Below, one piece after another: positions 2,608 to 41,046 of a DNA stretch of 64,000 nucleotides (positions within the stretch are counted from its first letter, which is position 1; every line of letters starts with the position of its first letter). The translations under genes were made by a program, and so were the position numbers. The notes below the pieces were generated by a model, which was given only the letters and a program-made list of their open reading frames with translations, was not told the origin of the DNA and searched no databases. This DNA comes from a bacterium (GTDB lineage Bacteria > Hinthialibacterota > Hinthialibacteria > Hinthialibacterales > Hinthialibacteraceae), in contig WGLV01000039.1 of NCBI GenBank assembly GCA_016125385.1, positions 7,343 to 71,342 of the forward strand, read 5' to 3'.

Positions 2608-5013
<2,406 letters not shown>

Positions 5014-6886: not shown

Positions 6887-7313
6887 TCGCCTGACCTTTC
6901 CCTACCGGGTTTTTTACGCCGACACCGACGCGGGCGGCGTGGTGTATTATGCGCAATACCTGCGAATGTTTGAACTGGCCCGCGCGCTATACATCGAAGC
7001 GTTCGGCATGTCGCTGCCCCAGCTTGAGCGGGAAGGATGCCTGTTCGTCTGCCGCCGCGCCGAGATCGATTATCACTCGCCCGCGCGTCTTGGCGACTCT
7101 CTCGACATTCACACGTGGATATCCGGCTCCGGTAAAACGTTTCTGACGTTTGAATACGAGATCGTTTGTTCCAGCCGCGTCGACGGCGAAGGCCAGCCTT
7201 TGCGCATCGTGACCGGCTTGACCAAAATGGCTTCGGTGGGCCAGAAAGACGGCCGCCTCATGCCCAGCCGAATTCCAGCCTGGCTGTTCGATCGGCTGGC
7301 TCAGCCCGTCTGA
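6858..7313 (+). CDS. YbgC/4HBT-family hotdog acyl-CoA thioesterase.
   Basis: FPYRVFYADTDAGGVVYYAQYLRMFELAR... is the 4-hydroxybenzoyl-CoA thioesterase/YbgC signature. A GAGGAAG RBS lies upstream of the ATG at 6858. Confidence 0.8.
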   Translation: MNELGGEPINRLTFPYRVFYADTDAGGVVYYAQYLRMFELARALYIEAFGMSLPQLEREGCLFVCRRAEIDYHSPARLGDSLDIHTWISGSGKTFLTFEYEIVCSSRVDGEGQPLRIVTGLTKMASVGQKDGRLMPSRIPAWLFDRLAQPV

Positions 7314-7383
7314 CCGCCGCCGCGCGCCCGGCGCCGATTGACCGGATACCGTCTCCATGATATAGCAGTTGTCAAACTGTTTG

Positions 7384-9762
7384 ATGAAGGGAATGTGGAA
7401 CGCCGTGACTCGCCTTTTGCTCGCCGCGCTGGCGCTTTTTTCGTTTTCGCTCGCTGGAACCGCTCAGGATCAACCGGCCGCTGAACCAGCCGCGCCTCCC
7501 GAACCGCCCATCGAGGTCATGAAAGGCCGCCCCGAATACGTGGTCGGCTCCAATGTGGTCATGGTGTACCGCGACGCTGGCAAGCAGGCGACTCTCGCCC
7601 AGGGCGAGACCGCCGTCACCGCCGATGAAATCGAATATAACGCCGATTCGCGCATCTTTAACGCGACCGGCGACGTCAAACTGTGGGACAAGGGGCTTAT
7701 CCTGCGCGGTGAAACCCTGCGTTATGACCTGAACGACCAGACCGGCGAGATCCATGACGTTCATGAAGCCGAACTCGACGAAGGATTCTTCTTTCAGGGC
7801 GAGCGGCTCGAGTTTCACCCACGCGCGGCGGGAAGGCTCGAATCGGCCAGCGGTGAAGCCACCGTCCGCGAATATACGTTGTATAACGGGTACGTCACCG
7901 GAAACGATCTGCCTTATCCCTATTACAAAATGAAATTCGACCGGCTGGTGGTCGCGCCCAAGGTCCGATACTGGGTGTACGACATGATTCTGGTCACGCA
8001 ATCGTGGCCGTTGATGTATTTGCCGTTTTATTCGCAATCGCTTCAGGAAAACAAAGTCGCCTACTATCTCTACGCCGCGTCGTATTCTCAACTGGGATTC
8101 GCCATTTTCAACAAGTTGAACATCGTTCCCAGCGATGAATACATGATCGACCTCTACGGCGATTACTACACCAAGGCGGGTATCGGCAAGGGCGCCAAGT
8201 TTACCTTTGACGTCGAAGGCGACTACGGCCCGCAGGGCCAACTGTACGGCTATCACATCAAGCAGGAAGCGCCGGATAACGACCGCATCTTCGACGGAGA
8301 CGACCGGTATCATTTCGCGCTCGAATACGCTCAGGATCTGCCCTATGACATGCGCTTGACGGTGAAGGGCCACAAACTGTCCGATTCAGAATACCGCGAC
8401 GATTACCGCAACCCCGAACGAGTGCGCGGCATCGATACGCGCGATTCAGAAAACGAGTTGACCTCCTTCGTTAACCTGACCAAGCGCTTCGACGATCAGA
8501 GCGCGCGTATCACACTGGGAACCCGGCTCGACGATTTTTACTCTAACGGCTTGCCTTACGTTGAACGGAAACCGCAGGTTCACCTCGAACAATACCCCTA
8601 CAACATTCTGAATTCAGGCCTGTACGGCAGCCTGCAACTCGATTACGGCCGCTACAACCGCGAACAGGGTATCACCTTCCCCCTTGATGAATACACCCTG
8701 TTTCAACAGACGCAGTTCGCCGACGAGTTCACCCGTTACGACGCCAACGCCAAACTTTCATATCCGTTTTATTTTCCCTATCAGATTACGCTCGAACCCT
8801 GGCTGGGTTATCGTGCGACGCAGTATGACGACGCCGTCCATCTCGCCGACGATCCCGCCGCGCCCGGCTACCAGTTGACGCCGTTTGATTTCGGCTCCGA
8901 GTCGCGCATGATGGCCCAGGCGGGCATGGACCTTTCCACCAAGCGATCGTGGGAGTTCGATCCATTTCTCGACCGCTTTCAGCGCATGCGTTTTCAGATC
9001 GAACCGATGTTGCAGTACAGCTACTTTTTACCCGACACCGATCTGGAAGAGTTGAAGGCGTCGAACGGCGGGCGTTTTCCGTACGTCGACCCCACGGATA
9101 TGTATCGCGCCGAGATGCACAACGTGTCGGCTCTGCTACGCACCAAGGTGCAGGGCAAAGACGCATACGGCTCCACGTGGGACTTCCTGCGGTTCACCAC
9201 CGGGCTGGCGTATGAGGCGTTTCCCGATGACAACCTGATATATGACAACTTTCTTTATTACGACGATTTCGCGAACAGCAAAAACCACCGTTTCACAGAC
9301 TGGATGGAAGAATTCTCCATCTTCCCGTTCCCCTGGTGGTCGATCGGCAACACGATCCGGTACGACATTGATGACGGCGAACTGCGTTCCAGTTATACCT
9401 TCACCCAGTTTGAAGTCATGCAGCGCGCCCGTTTCACGCTCGGGTATTACACCTTCCGCTACCCGTTCCTCGATCTGAGCGAACAGCAGGACGTCGCACT
9501 GGTCATTAATTGGGATATCGATCCCAAGTGGGGGCTGTTTTATGAGATGCGCTACGATATCGATGACGAGCGCTTCCGCAGAAACGTGATCGGCCTGATC
9601 CGCAATATGTATGACTTTTACGCCACGCTTGAATTCGAGCACGAAAATCACCCAACGCTGGGCGACGACTATGCGATCCATATCGGTATTCAGCTGGTGG
9701 GGCCGGGCCGCAAACGGCCTGACCGCCCCGTGGTGGGCGTCCCCAGCCTGTTTGCTTACTGA
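7384..9762 (+). CDS. LptD/OstA-like outer-membrane LPS-assembly protein: N-terminal OstA/LptA-like beta-jellyroll plus a large C-terminal beta-barrel.
   Basis: It has a signal peptide (MKGMWNAVTRLLLAALALFSFSLAGTAQ). It has the OstA-N pattern (ADEIEYNADSRIFNATGDVKLWDKGLILRGETLRYDLNDQTGE). The C-terminal ~600 aa is aromatic-rich with alternating beta-strand character and ends ...PSLFAY (a C-terminal aromatic, an OMP signature). The track ORF starts at a TTG at 7369; the first ATG is 7384. Confidence 0.7.
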   Translation: MKGMWNAVTRLLLAALALFSFSLAGTAQDQPAAEPAAPPEPPIEVMKGRPEYVVGSNVVMVYRDAGKQATLAQGETAVTADEIEYNADSRIFNATGDVKLWDKGLILRGETLRYDLNDQTGEIHDVHEAELDEGFFFQGERLEFHPRAAGRLESASGEATVREYTLYNGYVTGNDLPYPYYKMKFDRLVVAPKVRYWVYDMILVTQSWPLMYLPFYSQSLQENKVAYYLYAASYSQLGFAIFNKLNIVPSDEYMIDLYGDYYTKAGIGKGAKFTFDVEGDYGPQGQLYGYHIKQEAPDNDRIFDGDDRYHFALEYAQDLPYDMRLTVKGHKLSDSEYRDDYRNPERVRGIDTRDSENELTSFVNLTKRFDDQSARITLGTRLDDFYSNGLPYVERKPQVHLEQYPYNILNSGLYGSLQLDYGRYNREQGITFPLDEYTLFQQTQFADEFTRYDANAKLSYPFYFPYQITLEPWLGYRATQYDDAVHLADDPAAPGYQLTPFDFGSESRMMAQAGMDLSTKRSWEFDPFLDRFQRMRFQIEPMLQYSYFLPDTDLEELKASNGGRFPYVDPTDMYRAEMHNVSALLRTKVQGKDAYGSTWDFLRFTTGLAYEAFPDDNLIYDNFLYYDDFANSKNHRFTDWMEEFSIFPFPWWSIGNTIRYDIDDGELRSSYTFTQFEVMQRARFTLGYYTFRYPFLDLSEQQDVALVINWDIDPKWGLFYEMRYDIDDERFRRNVIGLIRNMYDFYATLEFEHENHPTLGDDYAIHIGIQLVGPGRKRPDRPVVGVPSLFAY

Positions 9763-17730: not shown

Positions 17731-18624
17731 ATGAAAACGATTTTCTTCCGTCAACTGATTTTGCCTCTGATCGCCGTCACGATCGTATCCCTCGCGGGAA
17801 CCCCCGCATTCAGCAAAGACGCCGCCGCGGCCACGATGCCCATCGACGCCGCGTTTGAAAAAGCCAAAGACCTGTTTCTGAACGAAAAATTCAAGGAAGC
17901 CGAAGAGACCTTCAGGCGTTGTCTTGAGGCTCAGCCGAAAAACGCGGAGATCATGAGCTGGCTCGCCCAGTCGATCGCCTTTGTGCTGGGCGAACAGGCC
18001 AAGCAGGGCGCTTCACGCCTTTCACTTCTGCCCCTCGGGCAGGACGTCCGCTCGCTCTACTCACGCGCTATGGAGATCGACCCCAACAGCGAGCGCGCCC
18101 GAATCGGGTATGCCTTGATATTGCGCGACCTGCCGGGAATTCTGGGCGGAGACGTGGACAAAGCCGAGGCGATCCTGACTAAAGTGCTTGAACAGGACCC
18201 CGAAAACATCCTCGCCTGTCATCATCTCGGCAATCTGTATATCCGCAAAAAAGACGAAGTGCAGAAGGGGCTTCACTTTTTGAAGCGGGCGCTTGAAGTG
18301 GCCGAAAACAAGGAACTCACCCGGGAAGACAAATTTTATCTGGGTGGAACCTGGCACGCGATCGGAAAAACCTACCTCGAAAATCTTGAAGAACCCGAGA
18401 CGGCTCTGCCGTATCTGAAAAAATCGGTCGAAATGGACCCCAACGACGCCAACCCGTTTCTTGACTTGGCTGAAGCTTACCGGCAGACCGGTCAGGAAGA
18501 TCTGGCGCGCCAGACGCTGCGCGATTGCATCAAGTTCTGCAAAGACCGCAAGTACAAATTTTTCTACAGCGACGTCAAAAAACTGGCGCGCAAACTCGGC
18601 ATCGAAGACGAAGCGAAATTCTGA
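17731..18624 (+). CDS. Secreted TPR-repeat protein.
   Basis: It has a signal peptide (MKTIFFRQLILPLIAVTIVSLAGTPAFS) and multiple 34-residue TPR-like repeats (AEETFRRCLEAQPKNAEIMSWLAQS; AEAILTKVLEQDPENILACHHLGNLY; ALPYLKKSVEMDPNDANPFLDLAEAY). Confidence 0.8.
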   Translation: MKTIFFRQLILPLIAVTIVSLAGTPAFSKDAAAATMPIDAAFEKAKDLFLNEKFKEAEETFRRCLEAQPKNAEIMSWLAQSIAFVLGEQAKQGASRLSLLPLGQDVRSLYSRAMEIDPNSERARIGYALILRDLPGILGGDVDKAEAILTKVLEQDPENILACHHLGNLYIRKKDEVQKGLHFLKRALEVAENKELTREDKFYLGGTWHAIGKTYLENLEEPETALPYLKKSVEMDPNDANPFLDLAEAYRQTGQEDLARQTLRDCIKFCKDRKYKFFYSDVKKLARKLGIEDEAKF

Positions 18625-18634
18625 AAAAGTGAAA

Positions 18635-19375
18635 TTAATGAACGCCGCGCATGGTTTCCATCGTGATGCGATGGTCGCGCGAGGCGTTGATGATCCGCAT
18701 GAAGCACACCACCCGGTTGTTCGACGTATAAAAAATCCGGTCCATCAATAACGCCGATTCGTCTCGCGGGCGCTGCAATAACTCCGCCTCGCGGTCGTCC
18801 AGAGTCGTGACTTCAAACGAATCCGCCGTGCGGATGATGGGGACTCCATTCTTCTTGGTGATGATGTCGAGGATTGAGTTGCCCCGCAGGTCTTCGAGGG
18901 GTACGCCGGGGCATAGGTCGTGCGACACGTAGGCGGTCTCCAGCGTCACAGGCGTTCCTTCAATAAAACGCCGCCGCAACACTTTAAACACCTGGTGTCC
19001 GGTTTCGTGATTGAACAGCTCCGTCAGATCCGACGGAGAGATGGTGAGCATCTTCTGGACGACTTCGGTCTCCCAGGGGACGCCGAAATCGAGGATGCTT
19101 TCGGTGATATGGGTCGAGAGCCACACACCCGCGTTGGACGGAGGTTTTTCGACGAAGGTTCCCTTGCCGGGAATCTTGCGGATATACCCCTTCCGCGCCA
19201 GGTCTTGCATGGCGGAGCGAACGACGGCTTTGCTGACGGCCTGTTGAGTACAGAGCTGATCTTCCGTGGGCAGTTGCGCGCCTACCGCAAGTTCCCCGCT
19301 TTCAATTGCCTGCAATAAAATGTCAACCAGCTGTAAGTAAAGCTTGCGTGGATTATCACGGTCAACTTGTTTCAT
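18635..19375 (-). CDS. GntR-family transcriptional regulator, HutC/UTRA subfamily.
   Basis: An N-terminal winged HTH (PRKLYLQLVDILLQAIESGELAVGAQLPTEDQLCTQQAVSKAVVRSAMQDLARKGYIRKIPGKGTFV) is followed by a UTRA effector-binding domain. Confidence 0.85.
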   Translation of the reverse strand: MKQVDRDNPRKLYLQLVDILLQAIESGELAVGAQLPTEDQLCTQQAVSKAVVRSAMQDLARKGYIRKIPGKGTFVEKPPSNAGVWLSTHITESILDFGVPWETEVVQKMLTISPSDLTELFNHETGHQVFKVLRRRFIEGTPVTLETAYVSHDLCPGVPLEDLRGNSILDIITKKNGVPIIRTADSFEVTTLDDREAELLQRPRDESALLMDRIFYTSNNRVVCFMRIINASRDHRITMETMRGVH

Positions 19376-19621
19376 AATATTATGATCGATGCGCCTTCAT
19401 GTCCCTGTAAAGGGACGCCGTCATACCTTGGACTATTTTGTACGATTACTTTTGCGATCGAAAGGCGGCTGATGCTATCCCGATCGTTTTTTCTTTAGTA
19501 TGATGCTCATTGGGCGTGAGGGAAATTCGCCTTTAGACATCGGGTTTCACCTCCGCCCGGCGCTTGATTAAAAACGCATACGCAACGAAATCATACAGAA
19601 GGATGTGGGAGGATTCACGAA

Positions 19622-20506
19622 ATGGCCGATTCGATTAACCGTAGACAAGCCCTTGGGGCTATCGCTGTTGGCGGCGCCGCGCTTAGCGCGGTTTCCAGCG
19701 TTTCCGCCGTGGAAGGAGGAGGCAAATTGAACGGACGCATCAAACAGTCGGTTTCACGCTGGTGTTATGGCGGTACGTGGCCCGACTTCAAGGAATTCTG
19801 CAAAGCCTGCGCTGACATCGGCCTTCAGGGCGTCGACCTGGTGGGGGAAGACGAAGCGAAAGTCATGAAGGAATTCGGTCTGGTTCCCTCCATGTTTACC
19901 CCGGGCGCGGGCTCGATTCCCGACGCGTGCAATGACCCCAAACTTCATGACAAACTGCTGAAGCAGTTTGAAGAAAACATCCCGAAAGCGGCCAGATACG
20001 GCGCGCCCAACGTCATCACTTTTTCAGGAAACCGCAAGGGAATGAACGATTATGACGGCATGCGGCATTGCGCCGATATCATCAATAAAGCCGTTAAAAT
20101 CGCTGAAAACGAAGGCGTTGTGATCTGTATGGAACTGCTCAACAGCAAGGTAAACCATAAAGATTATATGTGTGATCATACCGATTGGGGCGTCACTCTC
20201 GTCAAAATGGTGAACCACCCCAATTTTAAACTGTTGAACGACCTCTACCACATGCAGATCATGGAAGGCGACATTATCCGTAATATTCAGGATCATCACG
20301 CCTGCTTCAATCATTACCACACCGGCGGCGTTCCCGGCCGAAACGATCTCGACGAGACGCAGGAGATGTATTATCCCGCCATCATGCGCGCCATCGTTGA
20401 CACCGGGTACACCGGCTTCGTCGCACATGAGTTCGTCCCTCGCGCCCAGGACAAAGAGGGGGCCTTCAAAGCGCTCCAGCAGGCTGTAACTCTTTGCGAC
20501 GTGTGA
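19622..20506 (+). CDS. Tat-exported sugar phosphate isomerase/epimerase (xylose-isomerase-like TIM barrel).
   Basis: Twin-arginine signal (INRRQALGAIAVGGAALSAVSSVSA) followed by a TIM-barrel AP-endonuclease-2/xylose-isomerase-like fold with metal ligands (E in CMELLN, H in HYHTGG, E in AHEFVP). A GGGAGGA RBS precedes it. Confidence 0.85.
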   Translation: MADSINRRQALGAIAVGGAALSAVSSVSAVEGGGKLNGRIKQSVSRWCYGGTWPDFKEFCKACADIGLQGVDLVGEDEAKVMKEFGLVPSMFTPGAGSIPDACNDPKLHDKLLKQFEENIPKAARYGAPNVITFSGNRKGMNDYDGMRHCADIINKAVKIAENEGVVICMELLNSKVNHKDYMCDHTDWGVTLVKMVNHPNFKLLNDLYHMQIMEGDIIRNIQDHHACFNHYHTGGVPGRNDLDETQEMYYPAIMRAIVDTGYTGFVAHEFVPRAQDKEGAFKALQQAVTLCDV

Positions 20507-20544
20507 GATTCGCCGTCTATCAGACTGATTGCCGCACCTGAAAT

Positions 20545-20590
20545 AAAGCCCGGCGGGTAAATCCGTCGGGCTTTTCCGTTTTGAGGCGCG
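20545..20590 (+). terminator. Rho-independent terminator after the TIM-barrel gene.
   Basis: aaaGCCCGGCGGgtaaatCCGTCGGGCttttccgtttt: a GC-rich stem with one mismatch followed by a T-tract. Confidence 0.45.
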
Positions 20591-20666
20591 AGATGTGACA
20601 TTTTGCTTGTAATTCAATATATTGTCCGTATAATGCGCACTGTGCCCAATATATTGTAGGGAGGTT

Positions 20667-21284
20667 GTGTTAATGGATGAACTCCCCGTCATTCAAACGC
20701 CCGATTTGTCTGAACTATCCGCCGCGTTAAGCGAAAACCGCCCCTCGTGGGATGAATACTTCATGCTGCTTGCCAAACTGGCGGCGACGCGTTCAACCTG
20801 CTTCTCCCGGCCTGTAGGCGCCGCCATCGCCAAAGACAAGCGGCTGCTCGCCACAGGATACAACGGCGCCCCGCCCGGCGCGTGGCATTGCATCGATAAA
20901 AAGCAGTGTTACTGGCGTCAGCCTGAAAACCAGACGCCCGGCATCGAGCCGCGTGAACTGTCTCGCGCCGTCCACGCCGAGATGAACGCGATCGCTCACG
21001 CCGCGCGGAATGGCATCGCCATCGAGGGGGCGAGCATCTATGTCACCATGTCGCCCTGCGTGAACTGCTTCAAGGTATTACTCAGCGCGGGAATCAAGAG
21101 GGTGTTTTTTGAGCACATTTATGATTTCAACAACAACGGCGGCGACAAATTTCTGTTGGACTACTACAAACAATACGCCGATCTCGCTGAAGTGACTCAG
21201 TTGAAGATCGGCGCGGAAAGCCAGCGCATCTCTAACGAATTTATCAACGAAATTACCTCCAAACGCCGCCACGATCACTATTGA
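20667..21284 (+). CDS. dCMP/cytidine deaminase-family zinc enzyme (ComEB-like).
   Basis: The HAEMNAI...PCVNCFKVL zinc-binding H(A)E...PCxxC signature of the cytidine/deoxycytidylate deaminase family. Confidence 0.85.
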   Translation: MLMDELPVIQTPDLSELSAALSENRPSWDEYFMLLAKLAATRSTCFSRPVGAAIAKDKRLLATGYNGAPPGAWHCIDKKQCYWRQPENQTPGIEPRELSRAVHAEMNAIAHAARNGIAIEGASIYVTMSPCVNCFKVLLSAGIKRVFFEHIYDFNNNGGDKFLLDYYKQYADLAEVTQLKIGAESQRISNEFINEITSKRRHDHY

Positions 21285-21304
21285 GAATTGAATAACACAG
21301 GCGA

Positions 21305-21329
21305 AGGGGCGGGTCTCAGACCCGCCCCT
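21305..21329. terminator. Strong hairpin between convergent genes: an 11-bp perfect GC-rich stem with a 3-nt loop.
   Basis: AGGGGCGGGTCtcaGACCCGCCCCT. It has no clear U-tract on either side, so intrinsic-terminator function is plausible but not classic. Confidence 0.45.
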
Positions 21330-21368
21330 CGTGGTTCGATATACGGAGAGTTGGTGTAATCCGGCTGA

Positions 21369-22190
21369 TTACATTCCCTGCCAGCCTGAAATGGGCAGCG
21401 GATGATCTTCCGGCTCATGGCAGGAATTACAATCCATCTTGCTCAACACGTTGTTCTGGCCGGTCGAGCCGTGGCAGGTATTGCAGGTCGCGATGACGGC
21501 GGCCGGGCCGTTCTCCGGAACGAATGCGTTCTGGATCTGGGCGTTAATCAGTTCAGCCGCCTTGCTGGCGACGTCGGCTACCAGGCGGGCGCAGCGTTCT
21601 TTCCGTTCATTGCTCGTCACGCCGAGATTAGAGGCTTCACACCACTTGCTCACCGACGCGTGGCAGAGCGGTGAATTCGACACGCTCGTGGTCGTTGTTT
21701 CTTTCCCATCGGGGACATAGATGGGGAGCGCGGTTGTGGAGTACCAGGCCATCAGTTCGTCGATCAACGGATTCGCCGTACTGCTGGGCAACACCAGGTT
21801 GATCGCGGCGGCCGCTCCATTCAGCGTCCCGCACAACGAGCCCCAACTCACGACGCCGCCAGCGCCGTACCGCATCATATCGAGAGGAATCAGCGTAAAC
21901 GGATAGCCCTGCGTCTCGGCCAGCTGACCAACCAGCCCCTTGAACGCGCCGTAACAGCAGCCGCCTTGAGAATAAGCGGTGTAACCCATTTCCGCCGCCA
22001 TGTTCGGATCGAGTTCCGCGCAGGTCCAAGGCCATGCCGGTGCGGTGGGGTCGGCCTGGGCGGAAGCTTTTTCCGGGCTCAGCCCCGTCGCGGCGATCCC
22101 GGTGGCTGCGGCCGCTCCACCCACGATTTTGAGAAATGATCGCCTTCCTTCGAGTGTAGCAGTCATCGTCTCTTTTTTCTGTTCATCCAT
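21369..22190 (-). CDS. Tat-signal protein with an N-terminal C_GCAxxG_C_C-family (putative redox-active) domain fused to a C-terminal diheme c-type cytochrome module.
   Basis: The twin-arginine signal is GRRSFLKIVGGAAAATGIAATG. The C_GCAxxG_C_C-like motifs are WTCAE...AYSQGGCCYGAF...YGAGGVVSWGSLCGTLNGAAAAI. Two CxxCH heme-c motifs (CNTCHG and CNSCHE) sit in the last 45 residues. Confidence 0.75.
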   Translation of the reverse strand: MDEQKKETMTATLEGRRSFLKIVGGAAAATGIAATGLSPEKASAQADPTAPAWPWTCAELDPNMAAEMGYTAYSQGGCCYGAFKGLVGQLAETQGYPFTLIPLDMMRYGAGGVVSWGSLCGTLNGAAAAINLVLPSSTANPLIDELMAWYSTTALPIYVPDGKETTTTSVSNSPLCHASVSKWCEASNLGVTSNERKERCARLVADVASKAAELINAQIQNAFVPENGPAAVIATCNTCHGSTGQNNVLSKMDCNSCHEPEDHPLPISGWQGM

Positions 22191-22261
22191 GGTGCATCCT
22201 CCAGAGGGGTTTGAGTTCCGCTAACGGAGGCGATTTCTCCGGTAACGAATATATGCTTTTA

Positions 22262-22285
22262 ATTGCATAGGTTTTTGTATGCAAT
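22262..22285. promoter_or_regulatory. 8-bp perfect inverted repeat ATTGCATA-N8-TATGCAAT in an AT-rich promoter region upstream of the cytochrome-fusion gene.
   Basis: attgcataggtttttgtatgcaat lies within a ~140 bp AT-rich island (22262-22400) in GC-rich DNA. This is a candidate operator. Confidence 0.3.
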
Positions 22286-22530
22286 ATATGATCTTATCCT
22301 CATTTTGGTTAGATTACATTTTAGCCATATTCTTGATTGAATGTCTACGCATAAATGAAAAAAATGAGATTATTATGCGATTTTTTGAGAGGCGCCGCTT
22401 TGGTAGACGATTTGTCTTGCGCGGAAATATCGCCATAAATCATGTTTTTTCAGGTGGTTTCAATTTTCGTAAAATAGCATCGGGGGGGAGGGAGCGCCGC
22501 TTCACGCTGGGTCATGAAGAAGCTGAATAA

Positions 22531-22562
22531 CAAAACCGGCGTTTCGAAAACCGAAACGCCGG
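22531..22562 (-). terminator. Rho-independent terminator of the Tat-Gfo oxidoreductase gene.
   Basis: caaaaCCGGCGTTTCGaaaacCGAAACGCCGG: an 11-bp stem with a 5-nt loop. On the minus strand it is followed by a UUUUG tail, ~28 nt after the stop at 22590. Confidence 0.5.
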
Positions 22563-22589
22563 TCGTGTGAATCTCAACCAGAAAGGGAA

Positions 22590-23948
22590 TCAGATTTTGT
22601 GCATGGTCAGTTTCCACGGAGCGCGGTAATCACGCTGGAACTGTGGGCAGGCCATCGCGGCGGGTTCGTTGGTGATGATCTCGCGATCGGCGTCCCATTG
22701 CAGCTTGAGGCCGGTGCGAAACGCGATGTTGGCGAGATGGCACAACGTGGTGGTCTTGTGCATCGACTCGATATCGGAACGGGGTTTCTGGCGCGTCTTG
22801 AGACAGTCGATGAAATTCGCCTGGTGGGATTCCTTGATTTCGTTGATGGTTTCAGGCTTTTTATCGCCGAGCCGGTCGCCTTCCGGCGATACCTTCCATG
22901 AGCCGCGGTCGACGAACAACTGGCCGTTGCGGCCGATCCATTCCGAACCGTGACCTGATTCATACCCGTCCAGTCCGCGCGCATTGCCCCATCGAACTTC
23001 CCAGTGCATCACCCAGTCCTTGAACTTGAAGGTAGCGATCTGGGTGTCGGGCGTGTCGCGTCCGTCGCGGATAAAGAACAGGCCGCCGGTGGAAGAGACC
23101 TCGACCGGGTCCCAGTCTCCCATCGCCAGGCAGACGATATCCATCATATGGACGCCCCAGTCGGCGGTCTGGCCGCCGGCGAAATCAAACCACCAGCGCC
23201 AGTTCCAGTGGAAGCGATTCTCCTGAAATAGCGAGAAGGGCGCCGGTCCCAGCCAGAAGTCATAGTCGACGCCTTCGGGCGGCTGGCTGGGATAGGCGAA
23301 GCCCATGCCGTCGCTGTTGCCCAGCAGCCAGGCGCGGCAGACGGTGATCTGGCCCAGCGCGCCCGAACGAACGAAGTCGATGGCGTCCTGAAAATGCTGA
23401 ACGCTGCGCTGCCATGAGCCGATCTGTACCACGCGGTCGAATTTTTTGGCGGCGTTCACCATCGCGCGGCCTTCGACGATGTTGTGAGAGATCGGTTTTT
23501 CACAATAGATGTCGAGGCCCGCCTCGCAGGCCGCGATGAAGATCAGCGCGTGCCAGTGGTCGGGCGTGGCGATCGAGACGGCGTCGAGGTCTTTGTTCTC
23601 CAGCAGTTTGCGGAAGTCTTTATGACCGGTCAGTTGCTGGTTGTATTCAGTTTCGAACAGATTTTTAAATTTTTCGACCTCGCGCGCGTCGACGTCGGCT
23701 ACGTCGGTGAAGCGCACGCCTTCAACCTTGGCCAACTCACGGGCGTTGTGAGTTCCCATGCCGTGGACGCCGATGGCGCCAATGTTTACGCGATCATTGG
23801 CGCCGAGCACGCTTGGTGGAAACGGGCCGGCGGCCAGCGCGGCCATGCCCGCCGAGGCGGCGGCTTTGGAAAACGTGCGCCGGGAGACCGGGTTCGCGGC
23901 GGATGACGCGTTCTGACGTTTGCGGGATTCCTGATTCATAAAAGCCAT
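22590..23948 (-). CDS. Tat-exported Gfo/Idh/MocA-family oxidoreductase (periplasmic sugar dehydrogenase-like; compare Zymomonas GFOR).
   Basis: The twin-arginine signal is SRRTFSKAAASAGMAALAAGPF. The Rossmann motif is NIGAIGVHGMGTHNA. The EKP motif is DIYCEKPISHN. The C-terminal Gfo dimerisation domain is present. Start is either 23948 (ATG) or 23939; the second has better AAGGAG spacing. Confidence 0.85.
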   Translation of the reverse strand: MAFMNQESRKRQNASSAANPVSRRTFSKAAASAGMAALAAGPFPPSVLGANDRVNIGAIGVHGMGTHNARELAKVEGVRFTDVADVDAREVEKFKNLFETEYNQQLTGHKDFRKLLENKDLDAVSIATPDHWHALIFIAACEAGLDIYCEKPISHNIVEGRAMVNAAKKFDRVVQIGSWQRSVQHFQDAIDFVRSGALGQITVCRAWLLGNSDGMGFAYPSQPPEGVDYDFWLGPAPFSLFQENRFHWNWRWWFDFAGGQTADWGVHMMDIVCLAMGDWDPVEVSSTGGLFFIRDGRDTPDTQIATFKFKDWVMHWEVRWGNARGLDGYESGHGSEWIGRNGQLFVDRGSWKVSPEGDRLGDKKPETINEIKESHQANFIDCLKTRQKPRSDIESMHKTTTLCHLANIAFRTGLKLQWDADREIITNEPAAMACPQFQRDYRAPWKLTMHKI

Positions 23949-24171
23949 CTCCTTGTGTGAACCGTCTCTTGATACCGGATATCGTTATAGCAAAACCGGA
24001 CGAATGAGTGAATAGGGCGCATAACGCCTGTGATCTCATGAATGGAGTACGAATCACATCGCGGAATGGTAATGGTTGTATCGAATCCACACCGGCTTGG
24101 CCGGGCGCGGCTGTGGCTCTATAGTCAGTCAACAATGAGGCCCGCCACAGGGGCCGGAGAGGATACGGGAC

Positions 24172-24939
24172 GTGAGTTCATCGATCTTGCTCGACCGCCA
24201 ATTGTCGCGGCCGTGGGTGTTTATGGACGCGGGAGACACCTTCGTTTACGGATACCCGACTTTTTACGAGGCGGTGCGCGACTGCTGGGTCGCGCTCGAC
24301 GACGAGGTTGACGACGCCTCGATCCGCAGGGCGGCGGCGCGTTTTTTCGCCGAAAATCCCCGCACCGCACTGACCTCGCAGGAAAACTTTCAGACTTACT
24401 TCCAATCGCTTTACCGATCGGTGTTGCGTGAACTGAACTTTCCCGGCGACGTGGAGGAATTCGTTGAATTTCTATGGGCGGAGTGGGAGAGCGGCCGCCG
24501 GCTGCGCCTGTTTGACGACGCGCGCGGCGCCTTGGAGATGCTTCATCGCGCGCGCTTCAAACTGGGAATCGTCAGTAACTGGGACCTGTCGTTTGAAGGC
24601 GTGATGGAGCGGTTGGGCGTGTTGAAGTATTTCGACGTCGCGGTCTGTTCATGCCGCGTCGGCGCCGCCAAGCCCGATCCCCGCATCTTTGAATACGCGC
24701 TCGAACAGGCGGGCGCCAGCCCCAGCCAGGCTTGGTTTATTGGAGATCAGGCCGAGTACGATACCGATCCCGCCGGGGCGCTCGGCATGAAGACCGTGCT
24801 GGTCGATTATTACGGAAAAAGCAAACCGGATGAGCGCGGCCGGGCCGACGTCTTCGCGCCAAGCATCAGTCTGGCGGCGGCGTGGATTCTGCAGGACGAA
24901 CTGGGGGATTTTACGAGCGGCGCTGCTGCTGAGACATGA
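24172..24939 (+). CDS. HAD-superfamily hydrolase.
   Basis: Motif I is VFMDAGDTFVYG (DxGDT). Motif II is LGIVSNWD. Motif IV is FIGDQAEYDTDPAGA. Its 3' end overlaps the convergent coiled-coil gene by ~29 nt. Confidence 0.8.
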   Translation: MSSSILLDRQLSRPWVFMDAGDTFVYGYPTFYEAVRDCWVALDDEVDDASIRRAAARFFAENPRTALTSQENFQTYFQSLYRSVLRELNFPGDVEEFVEFLWAEWESGRRLRLFDDARGALEMLHRARFKLGIVSNWDLSFEGVMERLGVLKYFDVAVCSCRVGAAKPDPRIFEYALEQAGASPSQAWFIGDQAEYDTDPAGALGMKTVLVDYYGKSKPDERGRADVFAPSISLAAAWILQDELGDFTSGAAAET

Positions 24940-25981
24940 TCGCCATGCGCAGGCGCTTCTTTTCTTCGACGGTTTCTTCCGATTCGGGCTGGGGGGCGTC
25001 TTCCCGGGGTTTTGGGGGAGCATCCTGAGCGGGCTGTTCCGACTTCACGCCAAGCTGAACCTCCATCTGGTCAATGACCGACGTGGTTTCTTTTTCTTTC
25101 ATATTCAGGTAAGCGATTTCACGCTGGATGGCGTTGAGTTCGCTCTGGTTCTCGTTGAACTGCGCGTTGCGTTGGCCCAGCTGTTGCTCGTAAACGGTGG
25201 TTTTCTCTTTGAGACTGCGGTCGATCAATGCTTTCAGGTTATCGATCTTTTTGCGCAGGTCCTGACTTTCTTCCTGCAGAACGCCCTCGCGTTGAGCGGC
25301 CAGGTAACGATGCCAGCTCAGAATGGTCTTTTTGTGATGTTGAAGATCGAGCCTGACATGGTGGCCTTTATTGGAGTCTCCCTGCAGGCACTTGCTGATC
25401 CTGACGTATTTCGGTTTCAGGTTGGCGAGTTCGCGGGCGAGCGGCAGCGCGTCCTGCGTCTTGCCTTGCCGCTGCATATCGAGCAAGGCGCCCATTTTCG
25501 ACTCAAATTCATCCATGACGGGATTTTTTTTGCGGGTATCCGCCATGCGCGCTTCAACGTCGCGCAATTCACCGAGCGAATAGGTCAACGAACGCGCGAC
25601 TCGCACCAGCTGGGGTTCGGTGCGGTTGATTTCACCGATCGGAATGAGACCGCTGTCGCGGTATTTATCGAGGGTGCCGCGCGCCAGAGTCAGCAGGACG
25701 TTCAACTCCATCGAGAGAATGTCTGAATCGCCGCGCAGGGCGAGCTGGATGCTGCGCTTCAGGTTTTGACTCTGGTTTTCTTCGGCTTCGCCCAGATACG
25801 ATTCAGCCTCTTCGCTGGTCATCCAGCGCACCATACCGTTATCGACCACGCGAACAAGCTCCCGTGGCGATTTGCGGTTCTGCTGAGCGTATTTGTCGAC
25901 GATGTCGTCGAGCAACGTCTGCAGCCGGTCAACCGAAACGTTTTCAGGCGATGACCCGAATAAGTCTTCAAAAGAAATCAT
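24911..25981 (-). CDS. Uncharacterised coiled-coil protein, paralog 1: a globular N-domain, a long heptad-repeat region and a basic C-terminal tail.
   Basis: MISFEDLFG...VSVDRLQTLLDDIVDKY...ELVRVVDNGMVRWMTSEEAESYL...KKNPVMDEFESKMGALLDMQRQGKTQDALPLARELANLKPKY, then ~150 aa rich in K/E/Q/L. It shares conserved blocks with the downstream paralog. Confidence 0.7.
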   Translation of the reverse strand: MISFEDLFGSSPENVSVDRLQTLLDDIVDKYAQQNRKSPRELVRVVDNGMVRWMTSEEAESYLGEAEENQSQNLKRSIQLALRGDSDILSMELNVLLTLARGTLDKYRDSGLIPIGEINRTEPQLVRVARSLTYSLGELRDVEARMADTRKKNPVMDEFESKMGALLDMQRQGKTQDALPLARELANLKPKYVRISKCLQGDSNKGHHVRLDLQHHKKTILSWHRYLAAQREGVLQEESQDLRKKIDNLKALIDRSLKEKTTVYEQQLGQRNAQFNENQSELNAIQREIAYLNMKEKETTSVIDQMEVQLGVKSEQPAQDAPPKPREDAPQPESEETVEEKKRLRMAIMSQQQRRS

Positions 25982-26071: not shown

Positions 26072-27193
26072 CTAGCGTTTAAAGTGCATCCCGTGCCGAG
26101 GCTTCGCGGACTGGCCGTCATCGGGCGCCGCGCTGCTCTCCGGCTTTTTGGGGTTGCTCATGCGTTGCTGGTGCTTGACGTCGTCCATGCTTACTTTGAT
26201 GTCCGTCTCGCCCAGCACGTTTTCCGCGATGTGTGAAATCACTGCGTCCAGTTCGCGTTCCTGCCGCTGAATAACAGCGGTCTCTTTTTCGAGCGAATGA
26301 AGTTCGACGACTTTTTCCTTGATCTCCTGCTCGGCGCCTTCCAGATCATAGGTGCGCAGTTTGCTGATTTCGTCGTTGGCTGAATCCATGCCGCGTTCTT
26401 CCGCTTCGGCCAACTTGGATTTCACCTCGGTCAGGTTGGTCTTCAGGTCATTCAATTCAAGTTGAAGCGCGTCAATTCGTGTTGAACAAAGATCGCCCTG
26501 CGTATTCAGAATGCGTTTTTTGGTTTTCTGCAGATTGAGGCGGTGATATTGAATGGTGCGGATATCCGGCTCAATGGCGCGCGTGAGCAGAAGGTAATTC
26601 TTTTTTTTGCCGGCCAGCTCTCGCGCGAGTTTCAGCGCCTCATCCATTTGACCGTTGGATTTGGCGTTTAAAAACCGCCCCATCATGTCTTCGTATTCAT
26701 CCAGCAGCGGGTTGCGCCGCCGTTTTTCGTGTAAAATCGCTTCGCTCTCCGCGGTTTGCGCGACGCCGTCGCTGATTTCGCGCTGACGCCGGGCAAGGCT
26801 GGGTTCAATCCGGGCGAAATCCTCCGGGCTGATGGCGTCGAGTTGTTTGTACTTGCCCAAGGTATACGTCGCCAGCGCGAGCAGAATTTCCAACTCCTGC
26901 CGAATGATCCGCAGATCGGCTTTCAATGCGGATTGTACGTCATGATGTAATGAGTCGCCTTCTTCGCCGGTATCGAGAAAGTTGACGGCCTGATCCTGCG
27001 TCATCCAGACTACTTTGCCTCGATGCACGACGCGGACCAGTTGATTCGGGTTGATCTGGACACGATCGGCGATCGCGGCCATGATCTTATCGAGAAACAC
27101 TTCGACCCGGTCGAGAGAAAATGGCTGGTCTTCTCCACCTAACAGGTCGGTGAATGATATCCCAGGTATGCTGTTCAGGTCGAAGTCATTCAT
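26072..27193 (-). CDS. Uncharacterised coiled-coil protein, paralog 2 (tandem duplicate of 24911..25981).
   Basis: Blocks shared with paralog 1: FTDLLGG / FEDLFG; SLDRVEVFLDKI / SVDRLQTLLDDI; QLVRVVHRGKVVWMTQDQAVNFL; RRNPLLDEYEDMMGRFLNAKSNGQMDEALKLARELAGKKKNY. A long coiled coil follows (LQLELNDLKTNLTEVKSKLAEAEERG...). Confidence 0.7.
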   Translation of the reverse strand: MNDFDLNSIPGISFTDLLGGEDQPFSLDRVEVFLDKIMAAIADRVQINPNQLVRVVHRGKVVWMTQDQAVNFLDTGEEGDSLHHDVQSALKADLRIIRQELEILLALATYTLGKYKQLDAISPEDFARIEPSLARRQREISDGVAQTAESEAILHEKRRRNPLLDEYEDMMGRFLNAKSNGQMDEALKLARELAGKKKNYLLLTRAIEPDIRTIQYHRLNLQKTKKRILNTQGDLCSTRIDALQLELNDLKTNLTEVKSKLAEAEERGMDSANDEISKLRTYDLEGAEQEIKEKVVELHSLEKETAVIQRQERELDAVISHIAENVLGETDIKVSMDDVKHQQRMSNPKKPESSAAPDDGQSAKPRHGMHFKR

Positions 27194-28193: not shown

Positions 28194-28336
28194 CGTTTGG
28201 GGCCAATTGAGAGGGAACGCCTGTATTGTTGTTGATTTGTGAGTGAAAAGCGGTCAGAATCGTTTCAACCAGGCGGACGCCGGCGATCATGCGACCGATC
28301 GCCTCGCCTCAGCGTAATCCGAAATTTTTTTATTAC

Positions 28337-28885
28337 ATGAATAATCCGAATCCGGCCGGACAGAAACTGCAATTTGAAACCACGCGTTTCGGCGAAATCG
28401 AAATCGCTGATGGCGACGTGATCGCCATGCCCGAAGGGCTGGTTGGTTTTAACACCTTCCGGCGATGGACCCTGCTGAAAGACCCCGAGCAGGAGCCTTT
28501 TTTGTGGTTGCAATCGCTGGACGACGGCGATCTGGCGTTCGTCGTGGTCAACCCGTTCATCTTCTTCCCAGGCTATGACATCAAGGTTAAACAATCCGAA
28601 CTGGCGCCCCTGCAGTTGGACGATATTACCAAAGCCGAAGTGCTGACCATTGTCACCATTCCATCCAACCCGATGGACCTGACCGCCAATCTGCGCGGAC
28701 CGCTTCTTTTTAACGTGGAAGCCAAACTGGCCAAACAGCTGGTTCTGATCGACGATCGCTATAACACGCGCCACTTTCTGTTGCATGACGTTCCGCCCGA
28801 TCTGGCGGCGCCCCGGGATGGGGGAGACGGCAACGGACAGGCGGCGAAAGAGCCGGATTCATCGTCTGATGAAGACGATAACTAA
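28337..28885 (+). CDS. fliW: Flagellar assembly factor FliW (CsrA-antagonist, flagellin-binding) with an acidic C-terminal extension.
   Basis: TTRFGEIEIADGDVIAMPEGLVGFNTFRRWTLLKDPEQEPFLWLQSLDDGDLAFVVVNPFIFFPGYD matches the FliW consensus (TxFGxIEI...FPxGLxGF...FxWLQSxDDxxLAFxVxxPF). The gene immediately precedes csrA. The start may be the earlier ATG at 28289. Confidence 0.8.
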   Translation: MNNPNPAGQKLQFETTRFGEIEIADGDVIAMPEGLVGFNTFRRWTLLKDPEQEPFLWLQSLDDGDLAFVVVNPFIFFPGYDIKVKQSELAPLQLDDITKAEVLTIVTIPSNPMDLTANLRGPLLFNVEAKLAKQLVLIDDRYNTRHFLLHDVPPDLAAPRDGGDGNGQAAKEPDSSSDEDDN

Positions 28886-28937
28886 CGCGGCCGCGGGGAT
28901 GCGCGGCATGCGCGGGATTTGGGCATAGGAGGCCCGG

Positions 28938-29189
28938 ATGCTGGTACTGAGCCGGAAACGAGACGAGAGCATCATCATCGGCGATGACGTGGTCATCACG
29001 GTGGTTGATATCAAGGGCGAACAGGTGAAGATCGGCGTCACCGCGCCCAAAACCGTCTCGATTCATCGTAAGGAAGTGTATGAGGCCATTCAGCAGGAAA
29101 ACCGCGCGGCCTCCCAGACCCAGCTGCAAAATTTGGCCGGGCTGGTGAAAGTATTGAAAAAACAACCCTCCTCCGACTCAACCAAATAA
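28938..29189 (+). CDS. csrA: Carbon storage regulator CsrA (post-transcriptional regulator), FliW-partnered type.
   Basis: [49 protein letters not shown] is the canonical CsrA sequence. A strong AGGAGG RBS precedes it. Confidence 0.9.
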
Positions 29190-40806: not shown

Positions 40807-41046
40807 CCATGCGCCATCGCGCCAGAATCAATCAGCCGATCGACCGGCCGATATGAATTGCTACGATTTTTTAGAACATCGCCCGAACTGTCAAGCGCAA
40901 CGGGTATTCCAAGGGCGGCGACTGGGCGCTGACGAGGCGGTGAGTCGCACCGTATCGTCCAGCCGGACGGCGTCTTCACGCTTCCACGTCCGTGGATGTT
41001 CCTCTATCCTTTGTCTACATTTTCACGAGCAAGGAGCCCGAACAGA

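Follow-up and report, generated by a model that had tools for sequence, protein, structure and literature searches.

Non-hydrolytic cleavage of glycosides by a dehydrogenase of the Gfo/Idh/MocA family (Gfo) exported through twin-arginine translocation (Tat) and paired with a lyase built on a triosephosphate isomerase (TIM) barrel is already described, in the systems BT2156-2160, AL1-5 and Agrobacterium OGE/HYD/Gfo. Known pathways include TIM barrels of the xylose-isomerase-like kind that work as 3-keto-glycoside lyases (bioRxiv 10.1101/2024.03.25.586180; PMC10628242). Another sort of glucoside 3-dehydrogenase, represented by LacABC and ThuAB, depends on cytochrome c (PMC8121099). I consider here a locus that invites comparison with these systems. 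It lies in a stretch of 64,000 nucleotides (nt) from contig WGLV01000039.1 of an uncultured bacterium of the Hinthialibacteraceae, a stretch that I will refer to as the window, and it holds genes for three proteins with Tat signals, namely a xylose-isomerase-like TIM barrel, a split-Soret cytochrome c and a Gfo oxidoreductase, beside a gene for a GntR-type regulator. A preliminary description of this DNA read them as a single module for the oxidative cleavage of glycosides. If true, the proposed system would be a new route by which electrons from sugars oxidised in the periplasm enter respiration, and the split-Soret cytochrome family would gain its first physiological partner. The evidence favors a plainer reading. 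The three neighboring Tat genes are probably three independent transcription units, their adjacency representing no conserved functional module, and, as part of the same reading, the product of each would be a periplasmic protein that bears a cofactor and is exported by Tat. The genes are additional members of large families already described, and the evidence does not support the module proposed for them.

The four open reading frames (ORFs) of the preliminary description were all found where it had placed them, and both the ORF calls and the searches of the window proteins against Pfam and NCBIfam, which provide the domain assignments used throughout (PDB chains were searched by phmmer), agree with its domains and its twin-arginine motifs. 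The regulator (18635..19375, minus strand) is of the HutC type, with a GntR helix-turn-helix and a UTRA effector domain (Pfam GntR 6e-16, UTRA 2e-24). The TIM barrel (19622..20506, plus strand; PF01261 4.5e-23), the cytochrome (21369..22190, minus strand; NCBIfam NF047622 5e-63, PF09719 7e-12) and the Gfo protein (22590..23948, minus strand; PF01408 4e-16, PF19051 5e-19, PF22725) are all putatively exported by Tat. Two features of the arrangement had gone unmentioned: the TIM-barrel gene is on the strand opposite to the cytochrome and Gfo genes, and it is separated from the cytochrome gene by a gene for a dCMP/ComEB-type deaminase (20667..21284, plus strand; PF00383 4.7e-25, TIGR02571 ComEB 2e-34), a cytoplasmic protein without signal peptide.

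The spacers contain signals that divide the genes further. A strong intrinsic terminator follows the TIM-barrel gene (20545..20574, plus strand), with a 13-bp stem including 8 GC pairs and a T-rich tail (-23 kcal/mol, z = -3.0). Another strong one follows the Gfo gene, starting 26 nt past the stop codon (22534..22564, minus strand), with a 14-bp stem including 8 GC pairs, then TTTTGTTATT; its stability of -26.4 kcal/mol (z = -5.7) was equaled in 0 of 200 shuffles. The Gfo and cytochrome genes are separated by an AT-rich spacer of 399 bp, within which a promoter-like site lies upstream of the cytochrome gene (TAGACA-18 nt-TAAAAT; 22318..22347, minus strand), matching the consensus at 10 of 12 positions, a match that is no proof of function. 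Promoter-like sites of the deaminase gene are found at 20595-20634 (plus strand). In view of the hairpin terminators and of the 399-bp spacer with its promoter-like site, the TIM-barrel, cytochrome and Gfo genes are each most likely monocistronic. An Rfam scan of positions 18400-24400 for riboswitches and small RNAs returned two sub-threshold chance matches only.

The neighborhoods of the same genes in related genomes point in the same direction. For the cytochrome, the 80 best genome loci were taken with 10-kb flanks, of which 69 proved analysable; their ORFs were called and compared by tblastn and phmmer with all the window proteins. The TIM barrel, the GntR regulator and the deaminase were present in 0 of the 69 loci, and a Gfo gene was present in one (L055). 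The gene that comes after the nearest cytochrome homologue (60% identity, L113) encodes an FG-GAP protein. When all cytochrome neighbors were clustered, no dominant partner emerged: there were scattered regulators, TatC, ResB/CcsA, hydrogenase and the combination of ArsR, ArsP, thioredoxin and DsbD discussed below. For the Gfo protein, the comparison drew on four contigs and on a metagenome scan that yielded 11 loci, two of them close orthologues. Gfo orthologues of 66-77% identity (L082-L089, L096) occupy five distinct contexts, with genes for an ABC ATPase, a GT4 glycosyltransferase, a polyphosphate kinase (Ppk) and a GDSL lipase, and at none of these loci is a split-Soret cytochrome or a TIM barrel the neighbor. 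The only Gfo neighbor to recur is a HAD-family hydrolase, which in the window is divergent from the Gfo gene (24172..24939, plus strand; PF13419, PF00702) and which has a tblastn match upstream of a 74%-identical Gfo gene in L086. The dCMP deaminase is absent from all orthologous TIM-barrel, Gfo and cytochrome loci compared. The claim that the three genes constitute one module thus runs against the terminators, the opposite strands, the intervening deaminase and the lack of synteny in orthologous loci, and in related genomes the three are essentially never co-localised. Separately transcribed genes, known families and neighbors that differ among relatives indicate an ordinary neighborhood rather than a new system that cleaves sugars and transfers electrons.

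One arrangement does persist. Orthologues of the TIM barrel (65-77% identity, from three lineages) always keep an orthologous GntR gene divergently placed, and nothing else is conserved around them; the GntR orthologues, 69-77% identical, occupy this same divergent position beside TIM-barrel orthologues in L090-L094. GntR and the TIM barrel are thus the sole conserved unit. A perfect 12-bp palindrome, CATAATATTATG, read directly from the sequence, overlaps the GntR start codon (19373..19384), and near-identical palindromes occupy the same place in L090 (CATAACATTATG, ~6826-6837) and L093 (CATAATGTTATA, ~3569-3580). It occurs as a single exact copy within the window. No copy with two or fewer mismatches was found upstream of the Gfo or cytochrome gene, and the 11-mers shared between the GntR-TIM spacer and the regions upstream of those two genes did not exceed shuffled controls. 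The palindrome is a candidate operator of the GntR-TIM pair, possibly autoregulatory, through which the HutC-type regulator would repress both the divergent TIM-barrel gene and itself, probably sensing a small effector derived from sugar by way of its UTRA domain. The regulatory link drawn in the preliminary description is accordingly real for the TIM barrel but does not extend to the Gfo and cytochrome genes, with which no operator is shared. The pair offers a handle on a very widespread subfamily of secreted enzymes, of which no characterised member was found.

What does unite the three proteins is their probable export, and the presence of three twin-arginine proteins within 5 kb was borne out. 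Each begins with a twin-arginine motif and a hydrophobic stretch (SINRRQALGAIAVGGAAL in the TIM barrel, EGRRSFLKIVGGAAAA in the cytochrome and VSRRTFSKAAASAGMAAL in the Gfo protein, whose motif is RRTFSK), followed by an Ala-rich cleavage region (N-termini INRRQALGAIAVGGAAL, GRRSFLKIVGGAAAA and SRRTFSKAAASAGMAAL). The signal of the TIM barrel would comprise about residues 1-29 (19622-19708, plus strand), with cleavage after SVSA as judged by eye, that of the cytochrome about residues 1-44 to a presumed cleavage site (22059-22190, minus strand) and that of the Gfo protein about residues 1-50 (23799-23948, minus strand), with cleavage presumably after VLGA. A simple motif scan over the 52 non-overlapping ORFs of the window produced only these three convincing candidates. 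A fourth match, at 40996, belongs to an OEP/TolC protein and was set aside, as it resembles a Sec-type signal. The twin-arginine motif is present in 81-84% of the best 120 homologues in each of the three families (101 of 120 for Gfo), and in the alignments it is nearly invariant (R16/R17 in the cytochrome, R7 in the TIM barrel). Conservation of this kind indicates that the signals have been maintained in evolution and did not arise by chance, and the three proteins are very probably exported to the periplasm via Tat.

Several points weigh against regarding the three genes as unconnected. All three convincing Tat candidates of the 64-kb window fall within four consecutive genes, and random placement would put three Tat genes within four consecutive genes of 52 with P ~0.007, a post hoc value that should not be over-read, because the region was chosen for its clustered look. 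Locus L055, from a metagenome-assembled genome (MAG) of Planctomycetota, contains at 5216-7418 a split-Soret homologue followed after 70 nt by a Tat-Gfo gene on the same strand; this Gfo protein shares the domain architecture of that in the window, and further genes there encode beta-helix, sulfatase and arabinofuranosidase proteins, as suits a locus for glycan degradation. In L086 (508-4694), the Gfo orthologue of 74% identity is followed by a gene whose product combines a part resembling cytochrome bd subunit I with a cytochrome c domain. The comparison, moreover, extended to no more than some twelve orthologous loci for each gene, mostly on short metagenomic contigs and none from a close genome of the same lineage, and functional partners can be encoded apart from each other. 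Genomes like that of L055 probably carry many Tat-Gfo paralogues, and with one such locus among 69 I regard the adjacencies in L055 and L086 as due to chance.

Some details of these two loci deserve mention in their own right. The split-Soret homologue of L055, the only other cytochrome-Gfo adjacency found, has a lipoprotein-like Tat signal. The fusion protein of L086 is unusual, its 453 amino acids (aa) comprising the N-terminal half of subunit I of cytochrome bd and, at the C-terminus, a cytochrome c domain of the cbb3 type, and the gene after it encodes a 384-aa protein without a Pfam match.

The full module, in which Gfo oxidises C3 of a glycoside, the TIM barrel eliminates the aglycone, the split-Soret cytochrome passes the electrons to the respiratory chain and GntR controls all of them, can draw on the clustering of the Tat proteins, on the L055 adjacency with its sulfatase, beta-helix and arabinofuranosidase genes, on the cytochrome-containing, oxidase-like gene after Gfo in L086, on the relation of Gfo to glycoside 3-dehydrogenases and on the existence of TIM-barrel lyases (bioRxiv 10.1101/2024.03.25.586180; PMC10628242). 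Nevertheless, I judge it very unlikely, given terminators, strand changes and an unrelated dCMP deaminase inside the cluster, no synteny in any orthologous locus of the three genes, a GntR gene conserved only with the TIM barrel and sharing no operator that could be found, and a TIM barrel nearest to Hyi/OtnI rather than to characterised lyases. Furthermore, the known cytochrome-dependent glucoside 3-dehydrogenases, LacABC and ThuAB, are other enzyme systems (PMC8121099), and periplasmic enzymes of the Gfo type recycle their bound NAD with a second sugar (PMC8121099; bioRxiv 10.1101/2024.03.25.586180).

Independent units are the more readily accepted once each protein is placed within its family. 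The cytochrome had been presented as a fusion of a C_GCAxxG_C_C domain to two CxxCH haem motifs. That architecture was confirmed, but its novelty was not, since homology to known split-Soret proteins extends over the full length: the cytochrome matches the NCBIfam model NF047622 ("split-Soret cytochrome c") over positions 3-263 of 275 (E 5e-63, 213 bits) and, by phmmer, PDB chain 1H21 with residues 41-259 on 5-234 of 247 (E 1.3e-46). It belongs, as an ordinary full-length member, to the split-Soret cytochrome c family, with no novel fusion. Its 213 bits do not reach the equivalog cut-off of 400, which makes it a family member and not a strict equivalog of the Desulfovibrio protein. When 30 homologues are aligned, the two C-terminal haem motifs (C236/C239/H240 and C254/C257/H258) prove invariant, as do the C_GCAxxG_C_C domain's four cysteines (C78, C120, C176, C200). 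In Ssc, the Desulfovibrio prototype, the four cysteines reportedly ligate a non-haem iron centre (a report attributed to Abreu et al. in 2003), and the N-terminal domain that contains them presumably carries an iron-sulfur centre there. Export by Tat would fit such a protein, because its N-terminal domain would, to judge from the family, gain the iron-sulfur centre in the cytoplasm, haem being added after export. As an independent unit, the gene would encode a monocistronic periplasmic dihaem protein that serves some periplasmic redox partner.

The split-Soret family is large, with at least 577 species-level genomes matched, and the matches listed are spread over Bacillota, Chloroflexota, Desulfobacterota, Bathyarchaeia, Archaeoglobi, Planctomycetota and Bacteroidota. 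Mutants in the homologues of D. alaskensis had no phenotype (PMC4215793). Relatives of the window cytochrome at 50-56% identity adjoin genes for a multihaem cytochrome, Thioredoxin_3, DGC, a DsbD-type protein, ArsR, an ArsP permease and an FMN reductase. Of the 69 analysable genome loci, 7 showed the context of ArsR, ArsP, thioredoxin and DsbD. It was also found in a locus of Verrucomicrobia and in one that is probably of Bacteroidota (so judged by the type IX secretion sorting tail of its protein), and its spread is over two phyla or more, with a MAG each of Verrucomicrobia and Cytophagia and the probable Bacteroidota locus, besides several unclassified MAGs. Clusters of split-Soret homologues with genes for ArsR-type regulators, an ArsP_1 permease, Thioredoxin_3, a DGC-domain protein and a DsbD/CcdA-type membrane protein lie at L002 1935-4609, L003 7282-9964, L004 9959-11787, L005 2848-5045, L006 3226-5881, L107 2455-7814 and L109 5355-10324. 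No association with sugar enzymes recurs nearly as often. The family may, as a hint from this context, have a role related to thiols and disulfides or to metalloids, and these neighbors are perhaps the better lead to its function.

Two variant forms came to light among the homologues. Some proteins of about 370 aa (P0051, P0064, P0078, P0104 and that encoded at 6001-7116 of L109) have, besides their N-terminal signal, a C-terminal Por_Secre_tail domain for type IX sorting and an FlgD_ig-like domain, which suggests a cell-surface version of the protein with its haem and iron-sulfur centres. Some close relatives of the cytochrome (P0008, P0012 and P0013; alignment A1, columns 325-405) are extended at the C-terminus by a linker rich in Pro and Thr and by a conserved motif, CDL-x-DG-x-VD-x-DL, that resembles a dockerin or an EF-hand-like calcium-binding module.

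The Gfo protein had been likened to glycoside 3-dehydrogenases, and these are indeed its closest characterised relatives, but the relation is distant. Against NF058561 (BT_2158_fam) it scores 146 bits where the cut-off is 750 (E 1e-42, model positions 2-269 of 487), and against PDB 8TDF it gives an E-value of 2.9e-26 (8TDF/8TDH ~1e-26), with its EKP motif, Gln and Asp-x3-His pair aligned to those of 8TDF. The active site of AL3 is made up of Gln161, Arg192, Trp195, Asp248, His252 and Tyr349 (bioRxiv 10.1101/2024.03.25.586180). In the phmmer pairwise alignment, subject to uncertainty in the numbering offset of 29 and in the alignment of loops, Gln161, Asp248 and His252 are matched, while Arg192 is replaced by Gly, Trp195 by Asp and Tyr349 by Trp. 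The sub-cut-off score, the aligned core and the differing sugar-binding positions together describe a distant relative of BT2158 and AL3 that has kept the catalytic core and probably acts on a different substrate. It belongs to a crowded family, with more than 5,900 matches at E <= 1e-20 among 8,000 candidates scored.

The cytochrome had been put forward as the dedicated electron acceptor of this dehydrogenase. That idea was not supported: one Gfo gene among 69 cytochrome loci speaks against it, and so does the way in which the characterised relatives recycle their bound NAD, with 3-keto-sugar. Added NAD(P)(H) has no effect on AL3 or BT3, and a 3-keto-glucoside as re-oxidant raises turnover more than 100-fold (bioRxiv 10.1101/2024.03.25.586180; PMC8121099). 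Because enzymes of the BT2158/AL3 type re-oxidise their tightly bound NAD with a 3-keto-sugar, no cytochrome acceptor is needed (bioRxiv 10.1101/2024.03.25.586180; PMC8121099). No conserved feature hints that the cytochrome takes up electrons from Gfo. One might still suppose that in some glycan degraders split-Soret cytochromes re-oxidise NAD(P)H that Gfo dehydrogenases exported by Tat hold in non-exchangeable form, which, if true, would couple periplasmic sugar oxidation to respiration. All that speaks for this is the pair of adjacencies in the window and in L055 plus the oxidase-like gene after Gfo in L086, and I consider it very improbable. Under the reading preferred here, of separate units, the Gfo protein would be expressed from a monocistronic gene and exported with tightly bound NAD(P), and it would most likely oxidise a hydroxyl of a sugar or glycoside. 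By analogy with the glucose-fructose oxidoreductase GFOR, for which such a mechanism is established, and with BT2158/AL3, its cofactor would be recycled ping-pong by reduction of a keto-sugar and not via the cytochrome.

As for the TIM barrel, the role as a 3-keto-glycoside lyase that had been suggested for it is true of known pathways, but the protein in the window is nearest to Hyi and OtnI. Its NCBIfam matches are OtnI (2e-24, 86 against a cut-off of 325) and Hyi (2e-21, 76 against 353), both below the cut-off, and its best sequence match in the PDB is the Brucella protein 3NGF (1e-18), with 1K77 also among the best. An AlphaFold model was obtained with a predicted local distance difference test (pLDDT) score of 88.9. 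Foldseek likewise places 3NGF at the top for this model, followed at similar E-values by ketose 3-epimerases, YcjR, and DgpBC and DfgAB, the last two ranking 24-35 by fold, with 12-16% identity. No chain named as a 3-keto-glycoside lyase appeared at E <= 1e-3 in the PDB sequence search or among the top 50 fold matches. The structural comparison with eliminases and deglycosidases that had been proposed therefore does find deglycosidases among the matches but no closer than isomerases and epimerases, and with all three at similar E-values the fold does not discriminate between isomerase, epimerase and lyase. Residues E171, D207, H233 and E270 are invariant across 42 homologues, consistent with an intact divalent-metal site in which they would be the ligands, going by the family pattern. 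All 8,000 candidates scored pass E <= 1e-20, and many of these homologues are annotated as "hydroxypyruvate isomerase family protein". By its sequence relations, the TIM barrel belongs to the hydroxypyruvate-isomerase/2-oxo-tetronate-isomerase-like subfamily and not to the characterised 3-keto-glycoside lyases. It would be a periplasmic metal-dependent isomerase, epimerase or lyase acting on an alpha-hydroxy-carbonyl sugar.

These assignments bear on a further alternative, that Gfo and the TIM barrel work in one redox-neutral periplasmic 3-keto-glycoside pathway resembling BT2156-2159 or AL1-3, governed by a dispersed regulon, the cytochrome being a bystander. Members of both families are partners in known 3-keto-glycoside pathways (PMC8121099; bioRxiv 10.1101/2024.03.25.586180; PMC10628242), both proteins bear Tat signals, the fold matches of the TIM barrel include the 3-keto-glucoside epimerase YcjR and the deglycosidases DgpBC/DfgAB, and in L090 the TIM-barrel orthologue has, at a distance of 4-7 kb, genes for a Gfo protein and for a DUF1080 protein, a 3-keto-disaccharide hydrolase. 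The window locus, however, has no DUF1080, Gfo and the TIM barrel are never adjacent in orthologous loci, and no regulatory motif is shared between them. The specific likenesses also fall short, with Gfo at 146 bits against the BT2158-family cut-off of 750 and, in the pairwise alignment, without residues aligning to Arg192 and Trp195 of AL3, and with a TIM barrel that has no named-lyase match at E <= 1e-3 or in its top 50 folds and is nearest to isomerases of the Hyi/OtnI type. Finally, each family has thousands of homologues, so that their presence together in a genome says little. I consider a common pathway unlikely. Both enzymes may act on periplasmic sugars, as independent units would also allow, but nothing at the locus ties them to one pathway.

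The wider surroundings add little. The GH127, CE4, S9 and FG-GAP genes that had been cited as adjacent signs of glycan scavenging are real, though found at distances of 6-25 kb and scattered between housekeeping genes. Beyond the HAD hydrolase, two tandem paralogues of about 360 aa (24911-25981 and 26072-27193, both on the minus strand; 33% identity, E 9e-50) fall outside all Pfam families; their N-terminal region is conserved, and the remainder looks coiled-coil-like by eye. At 28289-29189 (plus strand), two adjacent ORFs resemble, from a reading of their translations only, a pair formed by FliW, a flagellar assembly factor, and CsrA, a carbon storage regulator. Lying a few kb off, the pair looks unrelated to the Tat genes.

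It remains to set the locus beside the described systems. The catalytic subunit of systems of the LacABC type is an FAD/GMC flavoprotein, whereas the dehydrogenase of the window has the NAD-type Gfo fold, and its cytochrome, unlike that of LacABC and ThuAB, is encoded in a separate transcription unit. The cluster of AtOGE, AtHYD and a Gfo reductase in Agrobacterium tumefaciens (PMC10628242) and the deglycosidases DgpBC and DfgAB share with the window metal-dependent TIM barrels, which there act on 3-keto-glycosides and have a Gfo oxidoreductase as partner. Their match to the window TIM barrel is at the level of fold only, no better than that of ketose 3-epimerases, and the first oxidation is performed there by an FAD/GMC enzyme or by cytoplasmic DgpA.

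The systems of Bacteroides thetaiotaomicron (BT2156-BT2160) and Alistipes (AL1-AL5) resemble the window in having a Tat-exported Gfo protein with PF01408 and PF19051 and an aligned catalytic core, and a secreted xylose-isomerase-like TIM barrel nearby with intact metal site. They differ in that theirs is one operon, to which a lyase/hydratase with DUF1080 and another Gfo protein, a cytosolic one, also belong (PMC8121099; bioRxiv 10.1101/2024.03.25.586180). In the window the genes are in separate units without conserved synteny, the TIM barrel is of another subfamily, and neither ORF nor domain calls reveal a DUF1080 gene at the locus. With no single operon, no DUF1080, scores below the cut-offs and a different TIM-barrel subfamily, the locus lacks the defining features of that system.

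For each protein taken singly, the likenesses are of another kind. GFOR of Zymomonas mobilis (1OFG, 1H6A) is the archetype of a Tat-exported protein of the Gfo fold, with a non-dissociable NADP recycled by a second sugar; its match to the window Gfo protein is weak but significant (E ~1e-8, low identity), and it differs in the subfamily of its C-terminal domain and in coupling the oxidation of glucose at C1 to the reduction of fructose. Hyi, OtnI (YgbM) and 3NGF are the best matches of the TIM barrel by sequence and by fold and conserve residues of the E-D-H-E type. Hyi and OtnI, however, are cytoplasmic and act on small keto-acids, whereas the subfamily of the window carries a conserved Tat signal with the consensus RRxAL. 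The cytochrome, which lacks the ArsR, ArsP, thioredoxin and DsbD neighbors seen beside its closest relatives, has its counterpart in Ssc of Desulfovibrio desulfuricans ATCC 27774 (1H21; Abreu et al. 2003 J Biol Inorg Chem 8:360, as cited in PMC5701242). The host of Ssc is a sulfate reducer and that of the window cytochrome an uncultured, apparently glycan-scavenging bacterium, but the two periplasmic proteins have in common an export signal, homology over the whole mature protein, and the same succession of a C_GCAxxG_C_C domain and two CxxCH motifs.

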